Assembly (NCBI RefSeq): GCF_000020025.1
Contig: NC_010628.1
Coordinates: 4,260,001-4,292,000, forward strand
Source of the DNA: Nostoc punctiforme PCC 73102
GTDB lineage: Bacteria; Cyanobacteriota; Cyanobacteriia; Cyanobacteriales; Nostocaceae
DNA: 32,000 nucleotides
Direction of reading: 5' to 3'
Below the pieces are notes generated by a model that was not told where the DNA came from, searched no databases, and saw only the letters and a list, made by a program, of their open reading frames with translations. Below, piece after piece: positions 1,044 through 19,595 of the stretch. The position numbers and the translations under genes are program-made. Each line of letters starts with the position of its first letter. Position 1 is the stretch's first letter.

Positions 1044-1153
1044 ACGAGAAAAATGCGGAGTATTTGAGAAGATTTTGTCCAAGCATTGAACATTTATTTT
1101 AAATAGGAATTTACTGATGAATTCATTTAATAAAATAAAGTTATCCTAACTTC

Positions 1154-2000: not shown

Positions 2001-2882
2001 TCAAAACTTAAGGTTGCTTAAAGTAGTAAAGACTTGCCGTCGGTTATCGGTAAAGGCTCCACGACCGTGTAAAAACCTTGAATTATCCATCATTACCAGA
2101 TCGCCTGCTTTCCAAGGTATCTTTTCTGTTAGCTTATCGAAGATTCTCTCTATTTCATCAGCGACTTCATCAGAAGCTCTTGAACCGTCATCAAAAATTG
2201 CTTCTTCTGTCCTTTTTTGATATACCCAAAAGTGGTTTGCAAATGCATTTTGATGATTATATTTGTTGTTTACTACAGATGAACAAGTATATTCTACAGA
2301 AACAGTTTTATCATCATTAAACTGATAACTTACACCATCAACACTGTCTAACCTTTGCTTGATATCATCTATAGTATTAGCATTTGAACCTATTATTCCT
2401 TTCAATATATCAACCGGAACATTTTTATAAGAAAACTTTAGTTGCTTGGAAAGAAATAACTGTTTCGATTCTTGACTCAGTTCCTCCCACACTCGGATAC
2501 CATCCCAAAATAAAGTTTCGCCTTCTTGTTCGGCTGGTACAGTACAGCAAAACCAAATAACATCAGGTCGAAAGGGAAAACAAGAATTTTCGCAATGAGG
2601 AATAAGACCATCCATCCCGCCATCTACAAAATTGACATACTTGTCAGAATCAATGCTGACTTTTGTAAAATCTATAATATGCTTCCCACTAAATTGTTCT
2701 GAAAAATCTTTCATCTGCTTGGGAGTTACTCCAAAATCTCGAAATAGAATAACTCCAGATGACTTGAATATCTCCATAGTCTCTGCTACAGAGAGGTCAA
2801 GAATATTTTGACAATGACTATTATATAGTATCTTTCCTGTGCTAGTGCCTAGTGGCTCTATTTTACCGATCATATCATTCAT
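2001..2882 (-). CDS. TauD/TfdA-family Fe(II)/2-oxoglutarate dioxygenase
   Basis: 293-aa ORF. HxE facial-triad motif (IPHCEN), distal FLHGRGAF (His/Arg), and the GVILFRDFGV motif shared with the ORF at 17000..18031. Confidence 0.8.
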   Translation of the reverse strand: MNDMIGKIEPLGTSTGKILYNSHCQNILDLSVAETMEIFKSSGVILFRDFGVTPKQMKDFSEQFSGKHIIDFTKVSIDSDKYVNFVDGGMDGLIPHCENSCFPFRPDVIWFCCTVPAEQEGETLFWDGIRVWEELSQESKQLFLSKQLKFSYKNVPVDILKGIIGSNANTIDDIKQRLDSVDGVSYQFNDDKTVSVEYTCSSVVNNKYNHQNAFANHFWVYQKRTEEAIFDDGSRASDEVADEIERIFDKLTEKIPWKAGDLVMMDNSRFLHGRGAFTDNRRQVFTTLSNLKF

Positions 2883-3099: not shown

Positions 3100-6000
3100 T
3101 TAAATTTGATTCATAAAAATATTCAAATACTCTAAAATAATCTGAATATGAGGCTTGGTAATGATTGTGTAATGATTGCTAGGGATAGTAATAATCTCTA
3201 TTGGCTTGCCTGAAAGCCCACCCCAAATATAAGTTGGATTAGAAAATTCATTAGATACTTCATCACTAGCTTGAAAGTATAAAATTTTGTTTGGATAAAC
3301 TTGTGGTGTATAACTTTGTAGAGCTAGTACGTTACTCTTAAAAACCTTCAGAAGACAACGAAGCTGTTCTAGTTCAAAATCCAAAGGCAAGAGATTAACT
3401 ATCCTTGCTTGCTCTAAAAAATAGTTCAGTTGCTCGTCTAGGGTCATCAGTGCCTGAAGTTGCTCAACCGAACCCGATAGGTTTTTCCCAGCAGACTGTG
3501 CCATATCTGTGGCAAAATCGACTAATATTTTGACATCGTTGTAGTCATCAATCTCTGCAATTTCTTTGCTGTTAACTGGTGCTGGGCTGTCTAGCATAGC
3601 AAGCATGGCAACTCGATCGCCATTTCTTAGTAACTGAGTTGCCATTTCAAAAGCGACAATACCGCCCATAGACCAACCTCCAAGAAAATATGGGCCATTC
3701 GGCTGAATCTCTCGTAGTGCTTCAATATACTTAGCTGCCATATCTTCTATCCGGGTATAGGGCTGCGATTCCCCATTCAAACCTAGTGCTTGCAGCCCAT
3801 AGAATGGTTGATCTGAATCCAAATGAAGTGACAATTCGTAGTAGCAAAGAATATTCCCACCTACTGGATGCACAAAAAATAGAGGTGGCTTGGAACCATG
3901 AGGTTGAATTGCAACTAAGGGGGATGAGGTGCGATAATCAGCCCGATCGTGCAGAATATTCGCTAACTGTTTGATAGTTGGACTCTGGAAAATAGCAGAT
4001 AATTGAATATTTTTACCAAACTGATTATTAATTTTTGCTATTAAGTGTACAGCTAAAAGCGAGTGTCCCCCAAGCTCAAAAAAGTCGTCGTTGATGCCTA
4101 AGCTCTCAATACAAAGAATTTCTTGCCAGATATTAGCAAGTGTTTGTTCAGTATGAGTGCGAGGAGCCACATAATCATTTCCTAGATTAGGGCGGGGATG
4201 GAGTATCTTAGCAAGACTTGTTGAAGCTAATTTCTTTTTTATGTCTCCAGCAAAAGAGGTCTGCTCAACATCGCTTAAAGATTTGAGCTTTAGCCATTGG
4301 TCGAACCTAGCTTGTAAATCTCCTGCAGAGAGAACAACTTGAGTTATTTTATCACTTGTTAAAATACGTTGAAAAGCTTTTATGCCTTCTTCTGGTGTGA
4401 TAAATAATTCAGCCAATGTTGTTCTACTAGCTGTGTTTTTTTCTTCTCCAAGTTCCCAGCGCTCGCAATTAACACTAATCCAGGGGACAGGATTTATTTG
4501 ATTTTGTTTTTGAGCAAAAATATCCATAAAAATGTTTGCTGCTGAATAAGCAACTGATCTTAACCCTCCCAAAATGGATGATGAAGAAGATATCAACAGA
4601 TAAAAATCAAGTTGTCTCCCCTGCAAAACTTTTTCTAGTACGAATAGTCCATTAGCTTTTGATTGAAAGTGACACTGATAATCAGTTTGAGAAGTTTCTT
4701 GAATAGATTTTAGGGACTTGTCATCCACGATCTCTACTGCGTAAATAACACCATGTATGTCACCAAAATGCTCCGTAACAAAGGCGATCGCTCTTTGCAT
4801 CTGTTCAAGGTTGGTTACATCTGCGCTCAAAACTAAAACCTCGGCTCCTAACTCCTCTAATGCTTGCAATTTCCTGATTTTGCAGCTCACCTCATCCTGG
4901 CGATCGTGAGTGTTCAGCCACCCGAACCACTCATCTTTCTCCGGGAGATTCTTCTGTCCAATCAAGACGAGTTTTGCCTGCACTGTCTGAGCTAGAGACT
5001 CCGCTAGGATCGGTCCAATATTTCCCAGGCCCTCAGTAATTAAGTAGACTCCGCCGTTGCGTAATCTTGATGTTTTTCCCTTAGATTCTGACAATCGTAC
5101 TGGCTCAAAAGTTTGCACCCAACGATTCAGGCCACGGTAGGCTATAACCAACTTCGAGGATTTAGTTTGTAGCTCGTCCAGTAAATAATCTACAAGTTTC
5201 TCCTCTTGCCAACTTCCTGGCTTTGGAAGAGCAATATCAATGCTACGACAGCTGATGTTTGAGTATTCTTGAGGAATGACTTTAACTGGCCCAAGTACAG
5301 TCGCTTTCTCTGGACACAACATTTCTTCTGCTGTGACTGACTGTATGTTGTTGGAGACAACTGTAATTTTAAACTTATCAGTCCAATTCTGTTTTCCAAG
5401 TGCCTGGGTGAGAAACAACAGGCTGTAGAATCCCAAATATTGAGCGCTATCAAACCACTCGAGTTCTGATTCTGCGTGGTAGTCTGGTGTAACACTCCAT
5501 AAATGAATAATTGTCTTGGGGATCTTGTTTTGTACTAAAAGTTCATTGAGTAAGGCATCATAATCATTACTTTGTCGAGGATTGAGGGTATATAAGCACT
5601 CGCTTACTTTGGAGAATTCTGATCCGATCTGAATTGCGATCGCATCTTGTCCCTGCTGTTCGAGTCGTTTTACCATTTGAGAACCCAAGCCGCACTCATC
5701 GGTAAACACAAGGGTACAGAACTTTTGCTCTGCCAAGTCTCCTTTACCGAGCAGTTCTGGAGGTGCAGATTGCTTCCATAAAGGTAGATAAAACCAGTCA
5801 GCGATATCCGGTTTTTTATTCAATGACACTTCCGTAGCGTGGACATCGCGTGGCTGTGCTTGTGGCGAAATCCAGTAACGCTGACGCTCAAATGGATATG
5901 TTGGTAGGGGGATGCGATAACGCTGTTCGTTGGCGTAAAAGCCAGACCAATCTACTTGAAATCCAAAAAGCCAGAGGCGACCCAAAGTATTGAGTAGAAA

Positions 6001-8529
6001 TGCTACATCTGACTGTTGCTCCTGGGGATGGCGGATTGAAGTCAGCACCACAGGTTCCAAATTATAATGCTGTTTGGCGAAGGTACTCAATGTCTGTCCT
6101 GGCCCAACCTCTAGCAAAATTCGCTCTGGTTGCTTCAGCAATTCAGTCATCCCTTCGTCAAAGCGTACAGTTTGCCGTAGATGCCTTGCCCAATAATGAG
6201 GGTCTGTTGCTTCTGCTGTGGTAATCCAAGTGCCAGTGACATTAGAGATAAATGGAATTTGGGGGGGATTGCGCTTGACTTTTTGTAATAACTCGGTAAA
6301 TGGCTCAATGATGGCATCCATCATCTGAGAATGAAAGGCGTGGGATGTATGCAGCTTTCGACAGCTTATATTTTTTTCCAGTAGTTGCTGCTGCAATTTA
6401 TCGATGGCATCCGTCGAACCAGAAACAACACATAAGGAAGGGCTATTGATTCCCGCAAGAGAAAGCTCTTTTGGCAGCAGGGGCTGCACCTCTTGTTCAG
6501 AAAGTTGAACCGAGAGCATAGCACCTGTTGGAACTTGCTGCATCAGTCGTCCTCTAGCAGCTACTAGCGCCAAAGCATCGTTGAGGGAGAAAACCCCGGA
6601 AAGAGTTGCTGCCAAGTATTCCCCAAGGCTGTGACCTATCATCGCTTCTGGTAGCACGCCCCAAGCCATCCACAATTTGGATAAGGCGTACTCAATGACA
6701 AATAGCGCACTTTGGATAATAGAAGTTTGTTTTAATTGCTGTGTAGCTGTTTGAGTTTGTGCTTCGCTGGGATAGAGAATATCTCGTAAATCTAGCCCCA
6801 AGTGAGGTTTTAGAATCAGGCAGCAGCGATTGACTTCCTCAGTAAATTTGGGTTCGCTGTGGTACAACTCCCGACCCATATTCACATACTGCGCTCCCTG
6901 TCCAGGAAACATAAATACAGTGGGTCGATTACAGGGTTGTTGGTAGTGGGTGAAAACTTGTTGAGCTTCCAAAGTATGCAGTGCCTCAACTGCATCATCA
7001 ATATCATGACACACCAGTATCCGGCGATGGTTAAAAGTCTGACGACCAACTTGGAGAGTGTAAGCCACATCAGCCAGGTTTGTATCCGGATGCTGCTTGA
7101 GATGATTTGTTAGATTTACTGTGGCGGTTTCTAAAGCAGAGTTAGTTTTTGCAGACAGCATTAACAACTTATGGGTTTTCCCAACGTTAGATGCTTCGAT
7201 CGGAGGAGCCTCTTCTACAATCAGATGGGCATTGGTTCCACCAAAACCAAGAGAAGTAATTCCAGCCCGGCGAGGAATTCTGTCCGATTTCCATTCCGAG
7301 AGTGCGGTATTAACATAGAAAGGACTATTAGCAAAGTCGATCTGAGGATTGGGCTGCTCACAATGTAAGCTAGGTGGTATTTGTTTGTGTTTGAGAGCCA
7401 GAATCGTCTTAATTAAGCCCGCAATCCCGGCAGCCGCATCTAAATGTCCAACATTGGTTTTCACTGAACCGATCGCACAGAAACCACGCTTGGGTGTACT
7501 GACACGAAAAGCTTTTGTTAGAGCTTTAATTTCTATCGGATCGCCTATTGGTGTTCCTGTGCCGTGTGCCTCTACGTAAGTGATAGTATCAGCTTCTACC
7601 CCAGCAGCAGCTATGGCTTCTGCAATCACCTCCGTTTGACCTTCTACGCTGGGAGTTGTGAATCCAGCTTTCAAAGAGCCGTCATTGTTGACAGCAGAGC
7701 TTTTAATTAGTGCATGAATGCGATCGCCATCAGCAAGAGCATCTTTTAACCTCTTGAGAACTACAATTCCTATACCACTACCGAAAATAGTTCCTTTTGC
7801 TTTAGCATCAAAAGCGCGGCAGTGTCCATCAGGAGATAAAACCCCATCTTCTTGATAGAGATAGCCACCTTTTGGTTGCATATTCAATATCGAAATGCCA
7901 CCCGCCAAGGCCATATCACATTCGTAATTGAGCAAGCTTTGGCAGGCAACGTGAACGGCAACTAAAGAAGTAGAACAGGAAGTTTGAATTGCATAACTTG
8001 GCCCAGTTAGATTTAATTTGAAAGAGACACGCATGGGAAGATAATCGGGATGATTTCCCAGACTAATTTCCACATCGCTTGCTAATTCTCTAATGTTGGG
8101 GTTTGAATAAAGATTGAACAAATAGTTACTTATAGTTGAACCAGCATAAACCCCTATTGAACCAGAGTAGGTTTGGGGATTATAGCCAGCATTTTCAAGT
8201 GCGGCACACGCACACTCCAAAAAAATGCGGTGTTGGGGGTCCATTATTTCAGCGTCTCTGGGGTTATAGCCGAAGAATGACGCATCAAACAAATCTATAT
8301 CTTCTAGTGGAACTGCTGCTTTTACATAGTTGGGGTGACTAACCGTAACAGAGTCTATACCCGCAGATTCTAATTCTTGAGCAGAAAAAAATGAAATTGA
8401 TTCTACTCCGTCTCGTATATTTTGCCAAAACTGTTCAATATTCTCTGCTTTAGGAAATCGCCCAGATAGACCAATAATAGCTATATCTGCCTCATCTACG
8501 TTATTAATTTTATCTAATTTGTTCATCAT
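3100..8529 (-). CDS. type I PKS, KS-AT-KR-ACP-TE (terminal module)
   Basis: 1809 aa. KS nt ~7207-8490 (TSCSTSL, EAHGTGT, KTNVGHL). AT nt ~6010-6921 (GHSLGE, HAFH, malonyl type; YPFERQRYW post-AT linker). Structural plus catalytic KR nt ~4330-5817 (TEGLGNIG, YSAAN). ACP nt ~3940-4158 (ELGGHS, Ser1490). TE nt ~3115-3897 (FFVHPVGG, GGWSMGG). No DH or ER motifs. Confidence 0.95.
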   Translation of the reverse strand: MMNKLDKINNVDEADIAIIGLSGRFPKAENIEQFWQNIRDGVESISFFSAQELESAGIDSVTVSHPNYVKAAVPLEDIDLFDASFFGYNPRDAEIMDPQHRIFLECACAALENAGYNPQTYSGSIGVYAGSTISNYLFNLYSNPNIRELASDVEISLGNHPDYLPMRVSFKLNLTGPSYAIQTSCSTSLVAVHVACQSLLNYECDMALAGGISILNMQPKGGYLYQEDGVLSPDGHCRAFDAKAKGTIFGSGIGIVVLKRLKDALADGDRIHALIKSSAVNNDGSLKAGFTTPSVEGQTEVIAEAIAAAGVEADTITYVEAHGTGTPIGDPIEIKALTKAFRVSTPKRGFCAIGSVKTNVGHLDAAAGIAGLIKTILALKHKQIPPSLHCEQPNPQIDFANSPFYVNTALSEWKSDRIPRRAGITSLGFGGTNAHLIVEEAPPIEASNVGKTHKLLMLSAKTNSALETATVNLTNHLKQHPDTNLADVAYTLQVGRQTFNHRRILVCHDIDDAVEALHTLEAQQVFTHYQQPCNRPTVFMFPGQGAQYVNMGRELYHSEPKFTEEVNRCCLILKPHLGLDLRDILYPSEAQTQTATQQLKQTSIIQSALFVIEYALSKLWMAWGVLPEAMIGHSLGEYLAATLSGVFSLNDALALVAARGRLMQQVPTGAMLSVQLSEQEVQPLLPKELSLAGINSPSLCVVSGSTDAIDKLQQQLLEKNISCRKLHTSHAFHSQMMDAIIEPFTELLQKVKRNPPQIPFISNVTGTWITTAEATDPHYWARHLRQTVRFDEGMTELLKQPERILLEVGPGQTLSTFAKQHYNLEPVVLTSIRHPQEQQSDVAFLLNTLGRLWLFGFQVDWSGFYANEQRYRIPLPTYPFERQRYWISPQAQPRDVHATEVSLNKKPDIADWFYLPLWKQSAPPELLGKGDLAEQKFCTLVFTDECGLGSQMVKRLEQQGQDAIAIQIGSEFSKVSECLYTLNPRQSNDYDALLNELLVQNKIPKTIIHLWSVTPDYHAESELEWFDSAQYLGFYSLLFLTQALGKQNWTDKFKITVVSNNIQSVTAEEMLCPEKATVLGPVKVIPQEYSNISCRSIDIALPKPGSWQEEKLVDYLLDELQTKSSKLVIAYRGLNRWVQTFEPVRLSESKGKTSRLRNGGVYLITEGLGNIGPILAESLAQTVQAKLVLIGQKNLPEKDEWFGWLNTHDRQDEVSCKIRKLQALEELGAEVLVLSADVTNLEQMQRAIAFVTEHFGDIHGVIYAVEIVDDKSLKSIQETSQTDYQCHFQSKANGLFVLEKVLQGRQLDFYLLISSSSSILGGLRSVAYSAANIFMDIFAQKQNQINPVPWISVNCERWELGEEKNTASRTTLAELFITPEEGIKAFQRILTSDKITQVVLSAGDLQARFDQWLKLKSLSDVEQTSFAGDIKKKLASTSLAKILHPRPNLGNDYVAPRTHTEQTLANIWQEILCIESLGINDDFFELGGHSLLAVHLIAKINNQFGKNIQLSAIFQSPTIKQLANILHDRADYRTSSPLVAIQPHGSKPPLFFVHPVGGNILCYYELSLHLDSDQPFYGLQALGLNGESQPYTRIEDMAAKYIEALREIQPNGPYFLGGWSMGGIVAFEMATQLLRNGDRVAMLAMLDSPAPVNSKEIAEIDDYNDVKILVDFATDMAQSAGKNLSGSVEQLQALMTLDEQLNYFLEQARIVNLLPLDFELEQLRCLLKVFKSNVLALQSYTPQVYPNKILYFQASDEVSNEFSNPTYIWGGLSGKPIEIITIPSNHYTIITKPHIQIILEYLNIFMNQI
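3115..3897 (-). other. thioesterase domain (chain release)
   Basis: PLFFVHPVGGN, GxSxG as GGWSMGG (Ser1620), and a C-terminal PSNHYTII His region. Confidence 0.85.
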
Positions 8530-8548
8530 AATTTCTATTTTTTTTAAT

Positions 8549-8622
8549 CGAACTACAGAGACGCAGAGAACGCGGAGAGAGAAGAAATAGAGATTTTCAC
8601 AAATGATTTAGGACTGCTATAT
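8549..8622 (-). repeat. MITE-like small dispersed repeat (copy A, inverted relative to copy C)
   Basis: The reverse complement reads tatagcagtcctaaatcatttgtgaaaatctctatttcttctctctccgcgttctctgcgtctctgtagttcgatt. It aligns with copy C except for a ~29-nt block present only in C. Confidence 0.75.
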
Positions 8623-8624
8623 TA

Positions 8625-11600
8625 CTATCGTTGATTTCTTTTTTCTCTTCGTCTTTGACCACGAGAAATACTTTGTTTCGCAGAAAGTATTTCATTCTGT
8701 TCAGGGCAGACAATATTAGTAAGGGAGTTTATGGTTGGTGCTTCGTAAATACTCTCTATAGGAATGTCAAGGTCTAATTTTTTGTTTAACAAAGAAATAG
8801 CTTGAAGGGCTGTTAGCGAATCACCTCCTAACTCAAAAAAATTGTCGTGGATGTTAACGTTGTCAAAACCAAAAAGTTCTTGCCAAATGTCAGCAATAGT
8901 TTTCTCAATCTTTTTACGGGAAGCGGCATAAGTATTTCCCAAAGCATTAGGTATTTGCTCAATCAGGTTTTCAAACAACTCATCAGCAGACTTTACATTT
9001 GAAGTAACCGAGAGCGATTCAGTAGCTAAGTTTAAAGATGAGCCAGTCAAAGTTTGATTGGCGCTCGTCTGTCCGCTATTTTTTGAAGTCTGCTCAGATG
9101 TAAAAAATCCCCCTGCTTGCATTTCAACTACGCTTTCTTTGACCGCAGAAATTACTTGTTCAACGTCTTTATCAGTGTGAGCTGTAGATAGATAAAGAGT
9201 GCGTCCTTCCCAGACATAAATCCCTTTTGCAAGCAAGTGATAGAAAAATAAATTACCAAGTTGAGTCTGGCAATTAAAACGGAAGAGAGAACCAAAATTA
9301 ACGACTCGAATTGGTACTTGCTTTTGTTCAAAGTAACTATTGAGAGTCTCGGCTAATTGGGTTGTCCGTTGATTTAACTCCTCCTGAAGTTTGGAACCAC
9401 TGTTCTTAATGTGATTGAGTGTAGCCCAGGCGACACCCATGATGAGAGGATGCTTGAAAAAAGTACCAGCGAAAAAAGTTGTTTTCACCTGGGGGTAAGA
9501 CTCATCTCCATAGTTCCACATACCTCCGTCTAATGCATCCATAAAAACAGCTTTGCCAGCCACTACCCCAATAGGGATACCAGCAGCAACAGCTTTACCA
9601 TAAGTTGTGATATCTGCTTGAATACCCCATAAAGCCTGAACGCCACCTGGGTGCATCCGAAAGCCAGTAACCACCTCATCGAAAATTAAAACAGTTCCAG
9701 TTTCTTGAGTTAATTGTCTGAGTTGAAATAGAAACTCTTTAGGCTGAAAATCTGGGCGACTGCTTTGTATCGGCTCAACTAAAATTGCTGCTAAGTTATG
9801 AGCATTGTCTTTAAGAATATTGAGAGATTCGGGAGTACCATACTCCAGCACCATCACATCCTCAGCTAAGGATGATGGAATACCTGAAGTCATCGGGACA
9901 GAACGTAGCGTTCCGTCGTTGGTTCTTACTCCTTTGACCAAAACTCCATCAGAACCACCGTGATAAGAACCAGCAAATAAAGCAATTTTTGAACGTCCTG
10001 TAACAGAACGTGCTATGCGTACAGCCGCCATCACTGCTTCTGTGCCATCGTTACAAAAAGCTGTCCGTTCCGCACCGGTTAACTCACAAATTAACTCAGC
10101 TAATTGACCTGCAAAACGCGATTGTGGGCCGTTTAGTATACCTTGCTTGCTTTGCTCTTGGATGGCTGCGATCGCAAAAGATGGCGAATGACCAAATAAA
10201 AGCGTACCAAACCCCATTGAAATGTCTACATATTCGTTGCCATCGACATCCCAGAGTCTAGCACCCTCTCCACGCTCTGCATGGATTGGATATATCATCT
10301 CCTTGATAAAGGGAAAGAACCCTGATACTGCCCTGCTATTGGCATGACAAGAACGATAAGCTTGGGTAAGCCTTTTAGATTCTTGGGTACGCTTGACAAA
10401 ATGTGCAATTAAAGAGTCTAGATGTCTCTGCTGGCGGGGACTCAACATCATCGATTCTTTCTCGATCTGTTGGGAAGCAGCTTTGGGTGTAGGATTAATT
10501 TTCCGGTCTTTGATTTGTTGCTCAGACTCTGCCTTAGTAAATGTAGACTGATTTCCACTAAACGCAGAGCCATTGGTTGAGGTTTGAGCAATTTGCCCAT
10601 CTTGATGAATAGCTCCCAATGAAGGCAAAACTTCTCTGGCTAAACTTCCCTGTGGTAATAAGTCTACCAGTTTAGACATAACCTGAAGATGCTGTGAAAT
10701 TATCTGTTCAATGGCTGTATTTGCTATAGGTTGGTTAACGATTTGCGTATCTGGAACTTTGATTGAGTTGGTTATGATATCTTCTGGTTGAGAAACAAGA
10801 ATTTCATTTTTGGGCGATAGATTGTCATCATTAGCTAAGATAGGTTCAATCCAGTATCTTTTTCGCTCAAAAGGATACGTTGGCAAGGGAATACGATGAC
10901 GTTCTTCATCGGCATAAAATTCTGACCAATCCACATTTATTCCCTCCAGCCAGAGTCTACCCAATGTATTTAGTAAAAACGCCACATCTGATTGTTGGTT
11001 CTGTGGATGTCTTAGTGAAGAAAGAATTACCTGCTGGGCCGCTTTTTGCTTGTTAGCTAAGGTACTTAATGTTCGCCCTGGGCCAACCTCTAAAAGAATT
11101 CGCTTTGGCTGTTGCAGTAATTCGGCGATCGCTTCGCTAAAACGTACTGTTTGGCGTAAATGCCTTGCCCAGTATTTCGGATCTGTTGCTTGTGCTGGGG
11201 TTATCCAAGTGCCGGTGACGTTAGATACAAAAGGAATTTTTGGAGAATTAAGGCTAATTTTGCTAACCTGTTCCTGGAATGGTAACAGAATCGAGTCCAT
11301 CATTGAGGAATGAAAAGCATGGGAAGTATGTAGACGATGACAGTCTACACCTTGGTCAATCAATCGTTTTTGTAAATCATCAACCGCTTCCTCCAATCCA
11401 GAAACTACGCACATATCTGGTGCATTGATTGCAGCCAAAGAGAGTTTTTTTCCTAGCATGGGTTGGATTTTTTTCTCTGGTAGTGAAACAGCCATCATTG
11501 TTCCCGATGGAAGCTGCTGCATCAGTTGTCCTCGGTTGGCTACGAGTATCAATGCTTCTTCTAAGGAGAACACACCAGCAATGCAGGCTGCGACATATTC

Positions 11601-13505
11601 TCCAATGCTGTGACCAATCATTGCATTCGGACGTACACCCCAAGCCATCCACAACTGAGCCAAGGCGTACTCAACTACAAATACTGCGCTTTGGGTAATA
11701 TGAGTTTGTTGTAGTTGCTGTGTTAACGCTTCCGTTTGCTGATGCGGATACAATAATGTCCGCAGGTCTAACTTCAGATAAGATTTGAGAAATTCACAAC
11801 AGTAGTCAACCTGTTTGCGGAAAATTATCTCAGTCTCGTATAATTCTCTACCCATATTCACATACTGGGTACCCTGTCCGGGGAACATAAATGCAATCTG
11901 TTGCCCCGATGGTTCGGTGAATTTGGTGAAAACCCTTTCTGAAACAGGCGTTTCTAAAACTGTGACTGCATCGTTAAGGTTTTGACAAACTAATATTCGG
12001 CGATCGCTAAAACCCCTTCGACCTACCCCCAGAGTATAAGCAATATCGGCTAAGTTGAGTTCAAGATGTTGTTTGAGGTGATTAGCCAAATTTGCTGTAG
12101 CTGTTTCTAATGCAGATTTCGTTTTCGCAGAAATAACTAACAAATGATATTTCCTCCCTTGTCTCCTCTGCCTCCCCTGCTCCCACACCGGGGCTTCTTC
12201 AAGAATCACATGGGCATTAGTCCCACCAATCCCAAAGGAACTAACCCCCGCACGGCGAGGAGTACCATTTGACTTCCATTCTGAAAGCTTGTCGTTAACA
12301 TAAAAGGGGCTGTTAGCAAAATCAATCTGGGGATTGGGTTGCTCAAAGTGTAAGCTGGGCGGTATCTGCTGGTGTTTGAGTGCGAGAACAGTCTTGATTA
12401 AACCAGCAACACCAGCCGCAGCATCTAAGTGTCCGATATTGGTTTTTACTGAAGCGATCGCACAAAAGTTTTTTTTATCTGTGGGGCGAAAAGCTTGTGT
12501 CAGCGAGGCGATTTCAATCGGATCGCCTAAAACTGTACCGGTGCCATGAGTCTCTACATAACTAATCGTCTCAGATTCAACTCTAGCCATTGCCAGTGCC
12601 TCGGCAATTACTTTTGCTTGCCCATCTACACTAGGAGCCGTAAAACCAACTTTTAAAGACCCATCATTATTAATAGCTGAACCTTTAATCACAGCATGAA
12701 TACAATCTCCATCAGCTAAAGCATCTTCTAACCGCTTGAGAACTACAATACCCACCCCGTTGCCGCTAATAATTCCTTGGGCTTTGGCATCAAAAGCCCG
12801 GCAGTGTCCATCGGGAGACATAATTCCCCCTTGTTGATAGCGATAACCAGTTTTGTGCGGCACTTGGATCGAAACACCACCTGCCAAAGCGATGTCACTT
12901 TCGCCATTTAGTAAGCTTTGGCAAGCTAAATGAACTGCAACTAATGAAGTCGAACAGGCGGTTTGGACGTTAAGGCTTGGCCCCTTAAGATTTAATTTAT
13001 ATGAGACATAAGTAGGCAGAAAATTTGGACTATTGCCAATGGAAATTCGGTAACTGCCGACTGATTCTATAATTTTTGGTTGTGTATAAAGGTTTGTCAA
13101 AAAGTAAGTATTTAAACTGGCACCAGCATAAACACCAATCCGACCTGCATATATTTCAGAATTGTAGCCAGCGCTTTCCAGAGCTTCCCAAGCACACTCC
13201 AGGAATAAACGGTGTTGTGGATCGGTGATTTGGGCTTCTTTCGCAGAAAAATCAAAAAATGAAGCATCAAATAACTCAATATCTTCTAATACAGATCCTG
13301 CTTTTACATACTGAGGTTGACTCAGCGTCGCTGGATCAATCCTAGAAGACAACAATTCTTCATCACTGAAAAAAGAAATTGACTCAACACCATCTCGGAG
13401 ATTTTGCCAAAACTGTTCAATATTTTTAGCTCTAGGAAAACGACCATTCATCCCAACGATCGCTATTTCATCGAGGCTATCAAATGCATTTGGTTGATTC
13501 ATCAT
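8625..13505 (-). CDS. type I PKS with embedded aminotransferase, KS-AT-AMT-CP
   Basis: 1626 aa. KS nt ~12192-13472 (TACSTSL, ETHGTGT, KTNIGHL). AT nt ~11001-11894 (GHSIGE, HAFH). Low-complexity linker. Class-III PLP aminotransferase (GSA-aminomutase-like) nt ~9120-10445 with TTYGKAVAAG (Lys1304). Carrier protein nt ~8706-8918 (ELGGDS, Ser1563). AGGAGG lies 5 nt before the ATG and the gap to the upstream stop is 9 nt. Confidence 0.95.
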   Translation of the reverse strand: MMNQPNAFDSLDEIAIVGMNGRFPRAKNIEQFWQNLRDGVESISFFSDEELLSSRIDPATLSQPQYVKAGSVLEDIELFDASFFDFSAKEAQITDPQHRLFLECAWEALESAGYNSEIYAGRIGVYAGASLNTYFLTNLYTQPKIIESVGSYRISIGNSPNFLPTYVSYKLNLKGPSLNVQTACSTSLVAVHLACQSLLNGESDIALAGGVSIQVPHKTGYRYQQGGIMSPDGHCRAFDAKAQGIISGNGVGIVVLKRLEDALADGDCIHAVIKGSAINNDGSLKVGFTAPSVDGQAKVIAEALAMARVESETISYVETHGTGTVLGDPIEIASLTQAFRPTDKKNFCAIASVKTNIGHLDAAAGVAGLIKTVLALKHQQIPPSLHFEQPNPQIDFANSPFYVNDKLSEWKSNGTPRRAGVSSFGIGGTNAHVILEEAPVWEQGRQRRQGRKYHLLVISAKTKSALETATANLANHLKQHLELNLADIAYTLGVGRRGFSDRRILVCQNLNDAVTVLETPVSERVFTKFTEPSGQQIAFMFPGQGTQYVNMGRELYETEIIFRKQVDYCCEFLKSYLKLDLRTLLYPHQQTEALTQQLQQTHITQSAVFVVEYALAQLWMAWGVRPNAMIGHSIGEYVAACIAGVFSLEEALILVANRGQLMQQLPSGTMMAVSLPEKKIQPMLGKKLSLAAINAPDMCVVSGLEEAVDDLQKRLIDQGVDCHRLHTSHAFHSSMMDSILLPFQEQVSKISLNSPKIPFVSNVTGTWITPAQATDPKYWARHLRQTVRFSEAIAELLQQPKRILLEVGPGRTLSTLANKQKAAQQVILSSLRHPQNQQSDVAFLLNTLGRLWLEGINVDWSEFYADEERHRIPLPTYPFERKRYWIEPILANDDNLSPKNEILVSQPEDIITNSIKVPDTQIVNQPIANTAIEQIISQHLQVMSKLVDLLPQGSLAREVLPSLGAIHQDGQIAQTSTNGSAFSGNQSTFTKAESEQQIKDRKINPTPKAASQQIEKESMMLSPRQQRHLDSLIAHFVKRTQESKRLTQAYRSCHANSRAVSGFFPFIKEMIYPIHAERGEGARLWDVDGNEYVDISMGFGTLLFGHSPSFAIAAIQEQSKQGILNGPQSRFAGQLAELICELTGAERTAFCNDGTEAVMAAVRIARSVTGRSKIALFAGSYHGGSDGVLVKGVRTNDGTLRSVPMTSGIPSSLAEDVMVLEYGTPESLNILKDNAHNLAAILVEPIQSSRPDFQPKEFLFQLRQLTQETGTVLIFDEVVTGFRMHPGGVQALWGIQADITTYGKAVAAGIPIGVVAGKAVFMDALDGGMWNYGDESYPQVKTTFFAGTFFKHPLIMGVAWATLNHIKNSGSKLQEELNQRTTQLAETLNSYFEQKQVPIRVVNFGSLFRFNCQTQLGNLFFYHLLAKGIYVWEGRTLYLSTAHTDKDVEQVISAVKESVVEMQAGGFFTSEQTSKNSGQTSANQTLTGSSLNLATESLSVTSNVKSADELFENLIEQIPNALGNTYAASRKKIEKTIADIWQELFGFDNVNIHDNFFELGGDSLTALQAISLLNKKLDLDIPIESIYEAPTINSLTNIVCPEQNEILSAKQSISRGQRRREKRNQR
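9120..10445 (-). other. PLP-dependent aminotransferase (AMT) domain within the KS-AT-AMT-CP protein
   Basis: The region from LWDVDGNEYVDISMGFG to YGKAVAAGIPIG to VWEGRTLYLSTAHT is co-linear with the AMT at 29241-30575. A hand-aligned stretch gave roughly 85% nt identity. Confidence 0.85.
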
Positions 13506-13514
13506 AGCCTCCTC

Positions 13515-16500
13515 CTACTGGCTTTTTTCTTGATGTTTTTGTCGGAGTTGTCTTTGTTGTTTCTTTGATTCTCTCCGAGTATTAACTAAATCATGGCTTG
13601 GTTGCAAATCAGGTTTTTCTGCTAATTGTTGACTTAAATGTTTCGCCAAGGCACTAATAGTTGGATATTGAAACATTTCAACAATTGATATCTCTTTATT
13701 AAGAGTTTGATACAGTTTGCTGTGTACCTGAACCATCAGTAATGAATGACCGCCAAGATCGAAGAAATTGTGATGAATACCTACTTTCTTGATGTGGAGT
13801 ACTTCTTGCCAAATTATAGCAATAGTTTGCTCAAGTTCAGTCTCAGGAGCAACGAGATTTTCTTCCAGATTCAGCTGTGGCTGATCGGGTAGCACTCGGC
13901 GATCTACTTTGCCGTTAGGCAACAGTGGCATTTCCTTGAGCAGAACAAAGGCTGACGGGATCATATATTCAGGCAGACGATCTAACAAATAGCGACGAAG
14001 TTCACTAATGAGAGAAACTGGCTGTTGGTTAGCAACCAAATATGCCACTAGGCGCATATCCTGAAGTTCCTGCTTTTGGGCTATAACTACAACCTCCCGC
14101 ACCTCTGGATGTTGATCCAATACCGCCTCAATCTCCCCCAGTTCAATACGATAACCCCGGATTTTAACCTGCTGATCGAGCCTTCCGAGAAATTCAATGT
14201 TGCGATCGCTCAGATAACGAGCTAAATCTCCCGTTTTGTAAAGGCGCATTCCTGGGCGATCGCTAAATGGGTTAGGAATGAACTTTTCGCTAGTTAAGGC
14301 GGCTTGATTGAGATAGCCTCTAGCTAAACTATCACCACTGATATAAACTTCACCGATAACTCCAATAGGAACAGGTTGTAAATGAGAGTTAAGTAGATAA
14401 ATCTGCGTATTAGCAATGGGTTGACCAATCGATACTTGCTCTTTGATTTGTTGAGAGCGACAATGATATACACTGCTCCAAACCGTACCTTCTGTTGGCC
14501 CATACTCATTAAATAAAGATGGTTTTGATGGCAATTGGTGATGACGTTGTACTAACTCTGCTGGACAAGATTCACCAGCAACAATGACGGTGCGAAGTGA
14601 TGTTAATTGTTCGGGTTTGGACTCCTGCAATAAAATAGTATACAGAGATGGAAGGCTTAATAAATGGGAGACATGATTTTGGACGATTAACTCTAATAGT
14701 TTTGGGATGTCCAATTGCAACCCTTCTTGGGGAAGACAAAGAATTCCTCCAGAACAAAGAGTCCAAAAAATACCCGCCACAGAACTATCGAAAGCAAAGG
14801 AAGAAAGTAATAAGAAGCTACTAACAGGTTCTTGATAGTAAGTAATCCGAGCAGTTGTAGAGTTTACTAAATGGCGATGTGCAATCTGCACTCCTTTAGG
14901 TTTACCTGTAGAACCAGAGGTATAAATGACATAAGCTAAGTTTTCGCTATGCGTTTTAACCGGGGAATTTTCTTGACTCTCCTGAGCAATAATTGCCCAA
15001 GCTGTATCCAAGCAAATAGTTTGGGCACTATGGGCTGGTAAACCCGAAAGCAGTCGTTGCTGAGTCAATAATACTGGCGTTTTGGTATCTTCTAATATGA
15101 AAGCTAAACGCTCTGATGGATAATTTGGATCGAGTGGAATATAAGCTCCACCAGCTTTAAGAATGCCCAAAATCCCAACAATCATTTCGAGCGAACGCTC
15201 GACACAAATTCCCACCAGTACCTCTTTTTCAACTCCTAACCTTTGGAGGTAGTGAGCCATTTGATTGGCACGAGTATTTAATTCATGGTAAGTAACTTTC
15301 TGTCCAGAAAATGTAACGGCAATATTGTTTGGTGTTTGCTCTGCTTGTTCTTCAAATAAATGGTGAATACACTTGTCTTGGGGATAATCAGCCTGTGTTT
15401 GGTTGAACTCAAATAGAATTTGATTTCGGGTGCGATCGCTTAAAATTTCTAGTTCACTGATTGTAGCTTCTGGATGAGCCGTGGCACTTTTTAATAACTT
15501 ATGAAATTGCTCTGCTAAATCAGCAACATCATGTTCATAAAATAAATTAGAGTCATAATGAAATTCTGCACTTAAAAAATCATCCTTGCGTCTACAAGAG
15601 AATTTGATATTGAAACGCTCTGTGCAGCTATAAAGCTTGTGAATGCAAAACGATAGATTACCTGCACAATGCTTTGTATTTTCTTCAGCAAAATCAAAGC
15701 CCACAGGTACAAAAGGCAAAATATCTGATTTAGTATCTACTCCTAATATTTGTTCCCAACTAAAACATTCTTGCCATTTAGAGATAGATTCTACAGATTC
15801 ATGAATTTGCTGCAAAATTTGACTGAATCGAAAGTTATCTTCTAAATGACAATGAAGTGGTAAATATTTGGCAAAAAGTCCTAATGCTCCTTTGAGTTCT
15901 TCATATTTTCTGCCATCAACTCCCGTACCAACGATCATCTCTGATTGTCCGCTCAGTCTCTGGAGCAGAACCAGCCAGCAAGTTAGATAAAATATAGAAG
16001 CAGAAGTATTATATTTCTCGGCTAATATTTCAATATTAGATATCAATTCCGGGGCAATAATTGTATTTATTAATTTCGGTTGAAATTTGTGATTTTTAGA
16101 TATCTGTTTTTCATAAGGCAACTTGGGATGTGTAACACCAGATAAATCTTGCTGTTGCCAATATTTTCTTCCTATTTGCGTTTCTTCTGCTTCCAGTATT
16201 TGATTTTGCCATTCCGAAAAATCTGCATATTGTAGTGGAGCTTCATATAATTCTTCATCTAAATTTCCTAAGTAAGAAATAGTCAGTTGTTGTAATAAAG
16301 AATTGAGACTGACACTATCTGCACAGAGAGCAGGCAAACTGATAAATAATAAATATTTTTCTGGCGAAATCTTTACTAGGGATGTATGTAAAATTAAACC
16401 TTGTTCAAAGTCGAAATTTTGTTGGTTAGATTTTTGAAAAATTGCTTCAATCTCTGCCTCCTGTTCTTGAGTATTTAAATTACTAAGATCGTGATTTTCC

Positions 16501-16754
16501 AAAACTATTTTGCTATCTGTAATTACCTGCACTGGAATCGTCATTTCAGGTAGACAAATAAAACTGGTGCGAAGAATCTCATGGCGATTGACAACATCTT
16601 GCAATGCTAATTCTAAATTATTGATGTTAACATTACCTTCAATCAGAATTGTACAATCGCTACGATAAGCCCAACTTTGATCGATTTGTTTTAGTAACCA
16701 TAGATGCTCTTGTTGAGGTGAAAGTCTAAACCCCTCCATATTTTCTACTTGCAT
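13515..16754 (-). CDS. NRPS module: His-less C-like domain, A, PCP
   Basis: 1079 aa. The N-terminal C-fold domain (nt ~15435-16733) has SLPALCADSVS where HHxxxDG is expected. A domain nt ~13890-15371 (LAYVIYTSGSTGKPKG, NEYGPTE, YKTGDLARY, GRLDQQVKIRGYRIELGEIE, NGKVDRR). PCP nt ~13635-13841 (DLGGHS, Ser1004). Confidence 0.95.
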   Translation of the reverse strand: MQVENMEGFRLSPQQEHLWLLKQIDQSWAYRSDCTILIEGNVNINNLELALQDVVNRHEILRTSFICLPEMTIPVQVITDSKIVLENHDLSNLNTQEQEAEIEAIFQKSNQQNFDFEQGLILHTSLVKISPEKYLLFISLPALCADSVSLNSLLQQLTISYLGNLDEELYEAPLQYADFSEWQNQILEAEETQIGRKYWQQQDLSGVTHPKLPYEKQISKNHKFQPKLINTIIAPELISNIEILAEKYNTSASIFYLTCWLVLLQRLSGQSEMIVGTGVDGRKYEELKGALGLFAKYLPLHCHLEDNFRFSQILQQIHESVESISKWQECFSWEQILGVDTKSDILPFVPVGFDFAEENTKHCAGNLSFCIHKLYSCTERFNIKFSCRRKDDFLSAEFHYDSNLFYEHDVADLAEQFHKLLKSATAHPEATISELEILSDRTRNQILFEFNQTQADYPQDKCIHHLFEEQAEQTPNNIAVTFSGQKVTYHELNTRANQMAHYLQRLGVEKEVLVGICVERSLEMIVGILGILKAGGAYIPLDPNYPSERLAFILEDTKTPVLLTQQRLLSGLPAHSAQTICLDTAWAIIAQESQENSPVKTHSENLAYVIYTSGSTGKPKGVQIAHRHLVNSTTARITYYQEPVSSFLLLSSFAFDSSVAGIFWTLCSGGILCLPQEGLQLDIPKLLELIVQNHVSHLLSLPSLYTILLQESKPEQLTSLRTVIVAGESCPAELVQRHHQLPSKPSLFNEYGPTEGTVWSSVYHCRSQQIKEQVSIGQPIANTQIYLLNSHLQPVPIGVIGEVYISGDSLARGYLNQAALTSEKFIPNPFSDRPGMRLYKTGDLARYLSDRNIEFLGRLDQQVKIRGYRIELGEIEAVLDQHPEVREVVVIAQKQELQDMRLVAYLVANQQPVSLISELRRYLLDRLPEYMIPSAFVLLKEMPLLPNGKVDRRVLPDQPQLNLEENLVAPETELEQTIAIIWQEVLHIKKVGIHHNFFDLGGHSLLMVQVHSKLYQTLNKEISIVEMFQYPTISALAKHLSQQLAEKPDLQPSHDLVNTRRESKKQQRQLRQKHQEKSQ
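15435..16733 (-). other. condensation-fold domain lacking the catalytic histidines (possible interface/scaffold domain)
   Basis: Alignment to the two canonical C domains in the window puts I-S-L-P-A-L-C-A-D-S-V-S (nt 16308-16340) opposite T-M-H-H-I-I-A-D-G-W-A. Both His are replaced (Pro, Ala) and Gly becomes Ser. The C1 motif is also atypical (LSPQQEHLWLL). Confidence 0.75.
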
Positions 16755-16999: not shown

Positions 17000-18031
17000 T
17001 TAACCCAAGGGTATTGGTGTATGAGCTTCAGCCATTCCGACTAAAATTTTTCTGGGAGGGACAAATGGCTGACGGGCATGGATTGATAACATATTGTCCA
17101 GCATCAATACATGTCCTTTTTCCCAAGAAAAAGTGACCATTTCCTGTTGATAAGCTGCTCGTAGTTCAGCTAAGACTGATGGCTCAATTGCAGAACCATC
17201 CCCATAATATGTGTTAGTTGGTAGGTCTTCTTCTGGCAAATTTGTCAATAATGAATCGCGGATTGTTGATTCTAATGTGGAGACATGGAAAAAAGTTGCG
17301 TGATTGAACCAGACCATTTCACCTGTTTGAGGATGTTTGAGAACAACTGGCCCAACTTGACGAGTTCTTAAGCGATTATCTGCTTTCCATTCAACCTCAA
17401 TTCCATTGATTTTGCAGTACTCTTCTACCTTAGTTTTGTCTGTTGTTTGAAATACAGTTTGCCAAGGAAGACCAAATCCATCACCAAAGTTACGCATATA
17501 CATGACTTTCTTTTGAATGAAGCGATCGCGTATATCTGGATGAATCCGCTCAAACACTTTCCGACAACTACCAATTGGAGTTTCTCCTCCCTGCGCTGCT
17601 GGACTCATACAAAAAAAGAAGATTTTCAACGGAAAGGTAGGAGAGTAAGCGTGTTCATTGTGAGGAAAGATACTTTGCTCGGCAGGATAGTCTGTTGAAG
17701 TATAAATTCTCCCACCTACTTGAGTTCGTGGAGATGCCCGATAACGATACTCCATCGCCTCTCCACAAATCGCAGCGATGATTTGCTCAAATTCTTCTAT
17801 TGACTTGACTTTAAAATCCCGAAACAGTATTGCTCCATATTTTAATAATTCGGCTTTCAAAAATTCCCGATTATTCTTTGCCCAGTTTTGCAGATCCACT
17901 CCCTTCACATTGGGCTTAATCACCAAAGGAAAATTATTTCCTGGCTGGAGAAACTCAGTTTTTATTAAGTCTTCTGGAGATATATTGACAGCTTTACGCT
18001 TCACAGAACCTAGAGATTCAATTTTTGTCAT
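17000..18031 (-). CDS. SyrP/TauD-like Fe(II)/2-oxoglutarate dioxygenase (probable hydroxylase of a carrier-bound amino acid)
   Basis: 343 aa. GAILFRDF motif, HxE triad (FPHNEHAY, His124/Glu126), distal LSIHARQPF. The ATG at 18029-18031 overlaps the stop of the upstream C-domain gene by 14 nt. Confidence 0.85.
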   Translation of the reverse strand: MTKIESLGSVKRKAVNISPEDLIKTEFLQPGNNFPLVIKPNVKGVDLQNWAKNNREFLKAELLKYGAILFRDFKVKSIEEFEQIIAAICGEAMEYRYRASPRTQVGGRIYTSTDYPAEQSIFPHNEHAYSPTFPLKIFFFCMSPAAQGGETPIGSCRKVFERIHPDIRDRFIQKKVMYMRNFGDGFGLPWQTVFQTTDKTKVEEYCKINGIEVEWKADNRLRTRQVGPVVLKHPQTGEMVWFNHATFFHVSTLESTIRDSLLTNLPEEDLPTNTYYGDGSAIEPSVLAELRAAYQQEMVTFSWEKGHVLMLDNMLSIHARQPFVPPRKILVGMAEAHTPIPLG

Positions 18032-19595
18032 GATTTGTATTTCCTGATGTTGATTGTCTACTATTAGCTCTGCGCTTAACGTTCATTAATTTCTGCTGGA
18101 TAGTATTTTGATAAACTTGTTCTTTAGCTAGATGCTGTTGCTTGTCTACTTGATTGAGAACTGCTTTTAACTCGCTCAATTTAGCTTCTGGGTGTGTCGC
18201 AACCTCGGCTAGAAGTGTTGCAAAATTTTTCGATAACCGCACAATACTGTCCCGTTCAAATAAGTCAGTGCTATATTCCCAGATACCAAATAGTCCTTGC
18301 TCTGTCTCGTTTAACTCCAACAGCAAGTCAAACTGCACTGTCTTGTTTTCGATTTTCAATGAACTGATAGTTAAACCTGGAAGTTCTAAAGATGGAGTTT
18401 GGGTATTTTCCAAAACAAGTTTGACTTGAAATAGCGGTGTGCGGTTCAATTCCCGTTTTGGATTTAAAGCATCTACCAGTTTGTCGAAGGGCAAATCTTG
18501 GTGAGCATAAGCTTCTAGAGTCATTTCGCGGACTCGTTCTAATAATTCTAGAAAAGTAGGATTTTTAGATAAATTTGTACGTAATACTAACTGATTAGCA
18601 AAGAAGCCGATCAATGCTTTAGTCTCTGCTTGATTGCGATTAGCAATATCGGTACCAACAACAATATCTTCTCGATCGGTGTACCAGTTTAGCAAAGCCC
18701 CAAATGCTGCCAGCAGTACCATAAATAATGTGATGCCTTGCCTCTGATTCAGAGTCTTGAGCCGATCGCATAAGGTTTTGGGTAATACTAGGGCTTCCCT
18801 TGCTCCAGAGAAAGTCTGGGTAGTTGATCGGGGGAAATCGCTAGGGAGTTCCACAACAGGTATACTGCCTAGTTGCTGCTGCCAGTAAGCAAGTTGAGTT
18901 TCTAATTGCCCCTGTAACCACTGTTGTTGCCAAACTGCAAAATCTACATACTGAATGGATAGTTCCGAAAGCGGTGATGGTTTACCAACAGAGAAAGCTT
19001 TGTACAAATCTGCAATCTCACGAATCAGCACACCTATAGCCCAGCCATCTGCGATAATGTGATGCATCGTCAATAATAATGCATATTCTGCCGCCGCCAG
19101 CTGCAATAGAGTAGCTCGCAACAAAGGGCCTTGGGCTAGGTCAAATGGCTGTTGGGCTTCTTCACTCGCCAATCGCAAAACTTCAGCCTCTCTCTGATTT
19201 TGAGGGAGTTTTTGTAAATCTACCACTGGTAATGTGAAGCTCAAACTCGAAGCAATAACTTGAAGGGGTTGTCCATCAACCACTGTGAATGTAGTTCTTA
19301 AAACTTCGTGACGTTTCACAACCTCTTTGAAGCTTTGCTCCAGCGCCGCCACATTTAGCCATCCTCCAAGACGCATGGGTACAGAGATGTTGTAGGCGCT
19401 ATTCCCAGGTTGTAACTGGTCGATGAACCACAACCTCTGCTGGGCAGAGGATAGAGGAAATGAGTTTAATTCTCGACTCTGAGGAACTATTGGCGATCGC
19501 AATAAGATTTCCCCTTGTTTATTATTAAGCCGTTGTACCAGAAGTTTTAGTTTTTCTGGTGAAAGTTCAGCAATCCGTTGCGAGAGGTCACTCAT
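18018..19595 (-). CDS. stand-alone NRPS condensation domain protein
   Basis: 525 aa. N-terminal LSPEKLKLLVQRL docking-like helix, C1 LSSAQQRLWFIDQL, intact C3 MHHIIADGWAIG (nt 19044-19064). No A domain or carrier domain follows. Confidence 0.9.
   Translation of the reverse strand: MSDLSQRIAELSPEKLKLLVQRLNNKQGEILLRSPIVPQSRELNSFPLSSAQQRLWFIDQLQPGNSAYNISVPMRLGGWLNVAALEQSFKEVVKRHEVLRTTFTVVDGQPLQVIASSLSFTLPVVDLQKLPQNQREAEVLRLASEEAQQPFDLAQGPLLRATLLQLAAAEYALLLTMHHIIADGWAIGVLIREIADLYKAFSVGKPSPLSELSIQYVDFAVWQQQWLQGQLETQLAYWQQQLGSIPVVELPSDFPRSTTQTFSGAREALVLPKTLCDRLKTLNQRQGITLFMVLLAAFGALLNWYTDREDIVVGTDIANRNQAETKALIGFFANQLVLRTNLSKNPTFLELLERVREMTLEAYAHQDLPFDKLVDALNPKRELNRTPLFQVKLVLENTQTPSLELPGLTISSLKIENKTVQFDLLLELNETEQGLFGIWEYSTDLFERDSIVRLSKNFATLLAEVATHPEAKLSELKAVLNQVDKQQHLAKEQVYQNTIQQKLMNVKRRANSRQSTSGNTNHDKN

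Follow-up and report, generated by a model that had tools for sequence, protein, structure and literature searches.

Class III aminotransferase (AMT) domains are embedded in the polyketide synthase (PKS) modules of several described assembly lines. In MycA, the AMT follows the acyl carrier protein (ACP), a condensation (C) domain comes next, and the substrate is a fatty-acid-derived beta-keto chain. McyE, NdaF and PuwE are ketosynthase (KS)-acyltransferase (AT)-ACP-AMT-C modules. To our knowledge, all characterised PKS-embedded aminotransferases are located after the ACP and pass the beta-amino chain to nonribosomal peptide synthetase (NRPS) or thioesterase (TE) domains. Here we analyse a module of Nostoc punctiforme PCC 73102 with the order KS-AT-AMT-ACP. 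It is encoded by the minus-strand open reading frame (ORF) 8625..13505 in a stretch of 32,000 nucleotides (contig NC_010628.1, positions 4,260,001 to 4,292,000), which we call the window and to which coordinates refer unless another contig is named.

Domain order and catalytic residues of the module

The ORF is intact and encodes 1626 amino acids (aa). Pfam called a KS at aa 12-388, an AT at aa 539-836, an Aminotran_3 domain at aa 1073-1433 and a single PP-binding domain at aa 1536-1597. The features of the gene are as follows:

8625..13505, minus strand: whole gene, a cis-AT type I PKS module KS-AT-AMT-ACP, assigned from Pfam and from orthologues with the same architecture
12342..13472, minus strand: KS domain, aa 12-388, with TACSTS (active-site Cys) at aa 182-187, HGTGT at aa 320 and NIGH at aa 356
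10998..11891, minus strand: AT domain, aa 539-836, with GHSIGE at aa 631 and a HAFH motif; malonyl-CoA is the predicted substrate
10446..10850, minus strand: AT-to-AMT interval, aa 886-1020, a largely low-complexity linker without a carrier domain
10656..10712, minus strand: conserved pre-AMT helix motif IEQIISQHLQVMSKLVDLL, aa 932-950, which follows the ACP in canonical relatives
9099..10442, minus strand: AMT domain, aa 1022-1469, a MycA-type class III aminotransferase with Lys1304 and Asp1276
8715..8900, minus strand: ACP, aa 1536-1597, with Ser1563 in GGDSL; the sole carrier, of the type that follows ketoreductase (KR) domains
8628..8714, minus strand: basic C-terminal tail ending in SISRGQRRREKRNQR, a putative docking element toward the next KS

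The protein has the equipment of a cis-AT extension module, namely the KS Cys-His-His triad, the GHSxG and specificity motifs of the AT, and the ACP Ser. HAFH in an AT domain is an established mark of malonyl specificity. The only phosphopantetheine site in the 1626-aa protein is FFELGGDSL with Ser1563, and an earlier note on this DNA, made from the sequence alone, had correctly placed the sole site after the AMT.

That note had also held that no carrier domain lies between AT and AMT, which was upheld by every approach used. Pfam gave no carrier match in this region even at E<=1, a custom carrier HMM run with hmmsearch --max on the aa 886-1020 interval scored 0-1.7 bits, and a profile of aa 886-1020 from 20 orthologues, compared with a profile of 184 ACP and peptidyl carrier protein (PCP) domains, gave an hhalign probability of 0.3%. 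In a MAFFT alignment with canonical KS-AT-ACP-AMT relatives, a clean gap of ~100 aa corresponded exactly to their GVDSL-type ACP, and the sequence on either side of the gap was conserved, YPFERKRYWIEP in the post-AT linker and IEQIISQHLQVMSKLVDLL in the pre-AMT helix. A cryptic ACP between AT and AMT was ruled out by Pfam, the custom HMM and hhalign, and the domain annotation that had been proposed as a check (PF00202, PP-binding) revealed none before the AMT. The description of the interval as a low-complexity linker was mostly accurate, but it overlooked the conserved helix motif. After the post-AMT sequence VKESVVEMQAGGFF, canonical proteins continue into a C or TE domain, whereas the clade to which this protein belongs continues into a linker of ~50 aa, the ACP and the basic tail. 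In ORF 8625..13505 the AMT is thus followed by the ACP and the protein end, and the next gene opens with a KS. The order KS-AT-AMT-ACP, without an internal ACP, is confirmed.

The AMT matches Pfam PF00202 (E 7e-51) and, over its full length, the solved MycA AMT (PDB 6KFM/6KFR/6KFU), with E 1.5e-154 for 6KFM, residues 8-456 of 461. It is 76% identical to the other AMT of the window (ORF 25896..31205). The pyridoxal phosphate (PLP) Lys1304 in TTYGK and the pyridine-N-binding Asp1276 in FDEVVTGFR align to the corresponding MycA residues. The domain family and these two residues are shared with MycA and ItuA of the mycosubtilin and iturin synthetases, and so, by prediction, is the proposed chemistry, the amination of a beta-ketoacyl thioester. 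Two traits of the MycA-type family are absent here: an ACP directly upstream of the AMT and a C or TE domain downstream. Unlike in MycA, the AMT of ORF 8625..13505 precedes the only ACP, a KS is next in line, and the predicted substrate is His-derived.

Conservation, rarity and origin of the AMT-ACP order

The AMT-before-ACP order recurs in 23 independent database clusters drawn from NCBI, JGI, ENA and Logan assemblies, at 65-97% identity; architecture and length are the same, and no catalytic motif is missing. The closest orthologue is that of Nostoc punctiforme UO1 (97% identity). Together with the window protein, these clusters form a clade of 24 members from Nostoc, Brasilonema, Tolypothrix, Hassallia, Rhizonema and Iphinoe, six named Nostocales genera, and from metagenomic sequences. 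The KS Cys/His/His, the AT GHSxG and HAFH motifs, the AMT Lys and Asp, and the ACP Ser are kept in 24/24 members; the PLP-binding residues, whose integrity the earlier note had left to a proper alignment, are therefore intact across the clade.

This conservation bears on two explanations in which the module would be of no biological consequence. PKS and NRPS genes are repetitive and prone to misassembly, and an internal ACP could be lost through misassembly or a collapsed repeat, in which case the order would be an assembly or annotation artefact. The frame is intact, however, and the same architecture and length recur in the 23 independent clusters, from several genera and data sources, which leaves this explanation a negligible chance. 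The loss of the AMT-adjacent ACP could in principle also reflect degeneration, the module being inactive or skipped, for example as a decaying remnant, and no second amination taking place. We consider this highly improbable: the catalytic residues of KS, AT, AMT and ACP persist throughout the clade and its six genera, the replacement ACP is present and conserved, and a dedicated lineage of downstream KSs co-occurs. The motifs conserved clade-wide and the full-length match to MycA therefore lead us to exclude both artefact and decay.

Among the best 120 homologues, the KS-AT-AMT-CP order (CP, carrier protein) was confined to the clade; it was seen in 0 of the 55 other AMT-bearing proteins, all of which were KS-AT-CP-AMT, followed by a C domain and further domains, a TE or the protein end. 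When the AMT+ACP segment was searched against 1.84 billion cluster representatives, the AMT>CP order was found in none of the 147 closest relatives; a CP directly preceded the AMT in 139 of these, and 128 of the 147 had the order CP>AMT>C. The domain order is thus as unusual as had been supposed in the earlier note. In McyE/NdaF/PuwE-type proteins of cyanobacterial hybrid lines, a class III AMT is likewise embedded in a cis-AT KS-AT module, but the canonical order there is ACP-AMT-C, whereas the present clade lacks that ACP and has a KR-type ACP after the AMT. According to a published survey, the PLP domains of assembly lines are mostly located downstream of the CP, and our literature search returned no published example of the KS-AT-AMT-ACP order and no described product. 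As judged from these comparisons, the architecture of the module is conserved, rare and previously undescribed.

In a neighbor-joining (NJ) tree of 80 AMT domains, the clade was nested among ACP-AMT lineages, its neighbours being KS-AT-ACP-AMT-TE proteins, the first AMT of the window (ORF 25896..31205) and KS-AT-ACP-AMT-C-A-PCP proteins of the P0028 type (A, adenylation domain). The C-terminal ACP was closest to KR>ACP carriers, with the window's own KS-AT-cMT-KR-ACP protein (cMT, C-methyltransferase) as the best match, and the ACP of the first AMT module grouped with AT>ACP>AMT carriers. On these sequence relationships, the AMT-ACP order is shown to have arisen from canonical KS-AT-ACP-AMT by deletion of the internal ACP and gain of a KR-type C-terminal ACP. 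Since the AMT is nested in the former group and the ACP is of the latter type, the module is a chimera of a canonical AMT module and the ACP of a "reducing module".

KSs downstream of AMT-ACP modules share 77-90% identity among themselves and 64-70% with the other KSs compared, which suggests that this downstream lineage is adapted to beta-amino acyl donors. Domain order tracks the partner: AMT-ACP modules hand their chain to a KS, and ACP-AMT modules to a C or TE domain.

Two further observations were made on the canonical relatives. A sister group (P0023-P0026, P0029-P0031 and P0043), with examples in Nostoc sp. NIES-4103 and Anabaenopsis circularis NIES-21, consists of terminal KS-AT-ACP-AMT-TE proteins in which the TE directly follows the AMT, a little-described architecture. 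The KS-AT protein before the first AMT of the window (31414..31938, minus strand; 5809-8715 on the Logan contig L001 introduced below) ends with IVNKQIAVMFQQLDIL, EKDM and a stop. IVNKQIAVMFQQLDIL is the helix motif that precedes every AMT and lies here ~50 aa past the post-AT linker; as the next gene opens with ACP-helix-AMT, the motif occurs twice in this split module. The KS of this protein shares 85-86% identity with the KSs of P0027 (KS-AT-AMT-ACP) and P0028 (KS-AT-ACP-AMT-C-A-PCP), and the doubled motif looks like either a docking element or the joint at which the two module types recombined.

The surrounding hybrid assembly line and its relatives

All large ORFs of the window run along the minus strand, and together they make up a single hybrid NRPS-PKS assembly line. 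In addition to the module described above, the following genes are present:

31414..32000, minus strand: C-terminal part of a KS-AT protein whose gene continues past the window edge; this protein makes up the first half of the first AMT module, which is split
25896..31205, minus strand: ACP-AMT-C-A-PCP protein with a canonical-order AMT and a Thr adenylation code (DFWNIGMVHK)
19950..25829, minus strand: PKS module KS-AT-cMT-KR-ACP, which extends the Thr unit
18018..19595, minus strand: stand-alone C domain in which HHIIADG is intact; it probably supplies the catalytic C activity of the His module
17000..18031, minus strand: TauD-family dioxygenase, from its position and the literature a putative beta-hydroxylase of PCP-bound His
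13515..16754, minus strand: NRPS module preceding ORF 8625..13505, with an interface-type C-like domain, an A domain (DSALIAEVWK, His) and a PCP
3100..8529, minus strand: terminal PKS module KS-AT-KR-ACP-TE, with a KS of the lineage that always follows AMT-ACP modules
2001..2882, minus strand: third TauD-family dioxygenase
1154..1918, minus strand: S-adenosylmethionine (SAM) methyltransferase (MT), a 44%-identical paralogue of which adjoins the first AMT module
72..1082, minus strand: aldo-keto reductase

The upstream flank was taken from Logan contig L001, which reaches 8.9 kb beyond the window. It encodes, in this order, a C-TauD fusion, an MT, an interface-A-PCP module with the code DLTKIGHVGK, which we take to be an Asp-type code, and the KS-AT protein, after which the window's ACP-AMT-C-A(Thr)-PCP protein follows. 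The contrast that the earlier note had drawn between the two AMT modules holds for the domain order, the AMT of ORF 25896..31205 (aa 265-626) being located after its ACP (aa 28-98) as claimed. It does not extend to the preceding unit, since the unit in front of the first AMT module is likewise an NRPS module, for Asp, and not a fatty-acyl or polyketide starter. The logic that leads to vicinal diamines is therefore independent of the unusual domain order. Searches with the partial C-TauD protein gave matches of <=76% identity, from related but non-identical clusters, and the best match in the genome collections was in a variant cluster of Tolypothrix (81% identity). Related clusters start with FAAL-ACP or with PLP-decarboxylase-A-PCP.

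The position of the module after a C*-A-PCP module, as described earlier, was substantiated by the A code and by the C-like domain of ORF 13515..16754. According to a 2025 compilation, DSALIAEVWK is a His code that accepts a beta-OH modification. The C-like domains lack HHxxxDG and read LPALCADS in the His module and LPSLCADA in the Asp module, as opposed to HHIIADG and HHIVADG in the true C domains of the cluster. At its end, the stand-alone C gene overlaps with the TauD gene 17000..18031, which separates the true C domain from the interface domain. In the literature, a beta-hydroxylase together with an interface domain is a marker of beta-OH-Asp/His metallophores (the system of Reitz and co-workers), and the cluster contains interface domains at the start of A-PCP modules, TauD proteins adjacent or fused to C domains, and both a His and an Asp A code. 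The preceding module is thus predicted to yield a beta-hydroxy-His residue, and it is the beta-hydroxylase hallmarks, for both beta-OH-Asp and beta-OH-His, that suggest a metallophore as the product of this cyanochelin-like hybrid cluster.

Cyanochelin-type clusters share with it a C-TauD fusion, or C and TauD, followed by a C-like domain without HHxxxDG and A(Asp/His)-PCP, and the upstream C-TauD protein is 61% identical to that of the cyanochelin C cluster of Myxacorys chilensis (contig JAHHHP010000001.1). By their published descriptions, however, cyanochelins B and C have neither an AMT-bearing PKS module nor a His-derived unit or module. Identity with a cyanochelin cluster was rejected, since the architectures of B and C differ and only the C-TauD/interface elements are shared.

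The succession [interface-A(His or Asp)-PCP] > [KS-AT-AMT-ACP] > [KS-AT-KR-ACP] is present in the window and in the loci of three distant orthologues:

L086 (Iphinoe): preceding A domain for His; followed by KS-AT-KR-ACP-TE; the two PKS genes are separated by two MT genes
L087: preceding A domain for Asp; followed by KS-AT-KR-ACP-TE; in the neighbourhood, genes for several MTs, a JmjC protein, an ABC transporter and MbtH
L085 (P0027): preceding A domain for Asp; followed by KS-AT-KR-ACP without TE and by C-A-PCP, so that the cassette is internal

Further genes were seen in related clusters. In L083, a metagenome-assembled Nostoc genome, four genes (6506-9962) adjoin C-TauD. Three of them, for a 3-hydroxyacyl-CoA dehydrogenase, a free ACP and an acyl-CoA dehydrogenase, resemble a hydroxy/methoxymalonyl-ACP extender-unit cassette; the product of the fourth, 356 aa long and without a Pfam match, may, at a guess from its position, be FkbH-like. 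The first protein of L087 (1-3406) has the order PLP-decarboxylase-A-PCP-C-TauD, and this cluster has, in addition to the MbtH and the ABC transporter listed above, a gene for a free-standing class III aminotransferase. The loading chemistry evidently varies within the cluster family.

Strongly basic tails were found at the end of both proteins that hand their chain to a KS-initiated protein, namely ..TRRESKKQQRQLRQKHQEKSQ in the His module (13518..13600) and ..SISRGQRRREKRNQR in the AMT module (8628..8714), and the protein before the stand-alone C domain ends in an acidic tail. The two kinds of tail possibly represent two classes of docking elements.

Predicted product and fate of the amine

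We consider it likely that the product of ORF 8625..13505 is a functional PKS extension module for beta-amination, with a MycA-type AMT in the KR/DH/ER position (DH, dehydratase; ER, enoylreductase) between AT and ACP. The AT would load malonate onto the single C-terminal ACP, and the KS would condense it with the peptidyl-(beta-hydroxy)histidyl chain supplied by interface-A(His)-PCP, giving a 4-amido-3-oxoacyl-ACP. The AMT would then convert the 3-oxo group into a 3-amine and thus create a vicinal amido/amino pair. Via its C-terminal docking tail, the ACP would hand the chain to the KS of the KS-AT-KR-ACP-TE protein, the terminal module would add C2 and reduce the new keto group, leaving a 6-amido-5-amino-3-hydroxy-7-imidazolyl heptanoyl unit at the terminus, and the TE would release the product. 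The backbone predicted in this way, for the window and the region just upstream of it, is ..(beta-OH)Asp-[CH(NH2)CH2CO]-Thr-[CH(OH)CH(CH3)CO]-(beta-OH)His-[CH(NH2)CH2]-[CH(OH)CH2CO]-. We infer the 3-amino-4-amido unit from colinearity and from the intact active sites.

The logic is similar to that of BioF and BioA, with a Claisen-type condensation yielding an alpha-amino ketone that an Aminotran_3 enzyme turns into a vicinal diamine. BioA acts after BioF in biotin synthesis and converts 8-amino-7-oxononanoate into 7,8-diaminopelargonate. BioF and BioA are free-standing and act on free acids, whereas the chain would here be carrier-bound within a PKS module and the AMT is of the MycA type, not of the BioA type. 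A literature search for vicinal diamine or diamino units made via an aminotransferase domain returned nothing relevant.

Several points weigh against the picture of a beta-aminating module in a rare architecture and a metallophore pathway. Colinearity may fail through module skipping, stuttering or trans-acting partners, and a thioester-bound chain that bears a free beta or delta amine tends to lactamise. The 32-kb window encodes no TonB-type or other siderophore transporter. The library of 1.84 billion representatives is clustered at 50% identity and its best 150 matches were inspected, so that it may hide other AMT-ACP proteins, and the NJ tree of AMT domains was built without bootstrap. An AlphaFold model of aa 841-1626 had a mean pLDDT of 39.8, with the ACP alone confident, and adds no structural support.

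The tendency toward lactamisation leads to the question of what becomes of the amine. It had been proposed that, after the last extension, the amine introduced by the AMT, then delta to the thioester, closes a six-membered lactam or a macrolactam, either through the TE or spontaneously. The geometry would be chemically favourable, the AMT-derived amines of iturin and microcystin end in ring-closing amide bonds, and in the window, L086 and L087 the AMT module is immediately succeeded by KS-AT-KR-ACP-TE. In L085, however, the cassette without TE feeds C-A-PCP, where the delta-amino thioester must survive, and the cassette is accompanied by methyltransferase genes whose products resemble amine N,N-dimethyltransferases and might block the amine. 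The proposal is thus still chemically plausible, but it has been weakened; because the cassette is internal in L085, such a release is not obligatory, and we regard it as unlikely for the window.

Those methyltransferase genes provide for a second fate, in which small SAM MTs would turn the amine into a dimethylamino or trimethylammonium group, that is, a charged or metal-binding group and not a nucleophile. Two paralogous MTs (44% identity; 1154..1918 in the window and 1781-2542 on L001) are available for two AMT modules, and MT genes are also found beside the cassette in L085, L086 and L087. Among solved structures, those closest to the paralogous MTs are of sugar-amine N,N-dimethyltransferases (TylM1/DesVI type, E ~1e-10), there are weak NCBIfam matches to glycine/sarcosine and daptide N-methyltransferases, and the adjacent TauD is faintly similar to trimethylammonium-recognising dioxygenases. 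The NCBIfam and PDB similarities are, however, far below family cut-offs and fall largely in the generic Rossmann region, and the MTs might instead O-methylate the carboxylate or hydroxyl of beta-OH-Asp, or N-methylate the imidazole. N-methylation of the amine is accordingly a somewhat doubtful outcome.

The TauD gene concerned, 2001..2882, comes after the TE gene, as do its counterparts in L086 and L087. The only NCBIfam families matched by its product, all with scores far below cut-off, are gamma-butyrobetaine, trimethyllysine and trimethylaminoethylphosphonate dioxygenases, and a PDB search with this protein added nothing to the lead of a gamma-butyrobetaine-like dioxygenase.

Returning to the beta-aminating extension module, the conserved succession of genes allows a broader reading, which we put forward tentatively and at somewhat less than even chances. 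KS-AT-AMT-ACP and its co-evolved KS may constitute a portable "beta-amination loop" that builds 3,4-diamino units from beta-hydroxy-His and beta-hydroxy-Asp, and the resulting chelating motif, which would be new and is reminiscent of the metal-binding region of bleomycin, may belong to an undescribed family of metallophores of Nostocales, including lichen cyanobionts.

The module would show that beta-amination can act like a step of the reductive loop in a purely PKS-to-PKS hand-off, and with its cognate downstream KS it would offer a template for placing amines in polyketide backbones. Amination beside an amino-acid-derived carbon would give carrier-bound vicinal diamines, which we did not find described for assembly lines. 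The likely setting is that of the metal-binding compounds of terrestrial and lichen-associated Nostocales, a group whose metallophores are poorly known.

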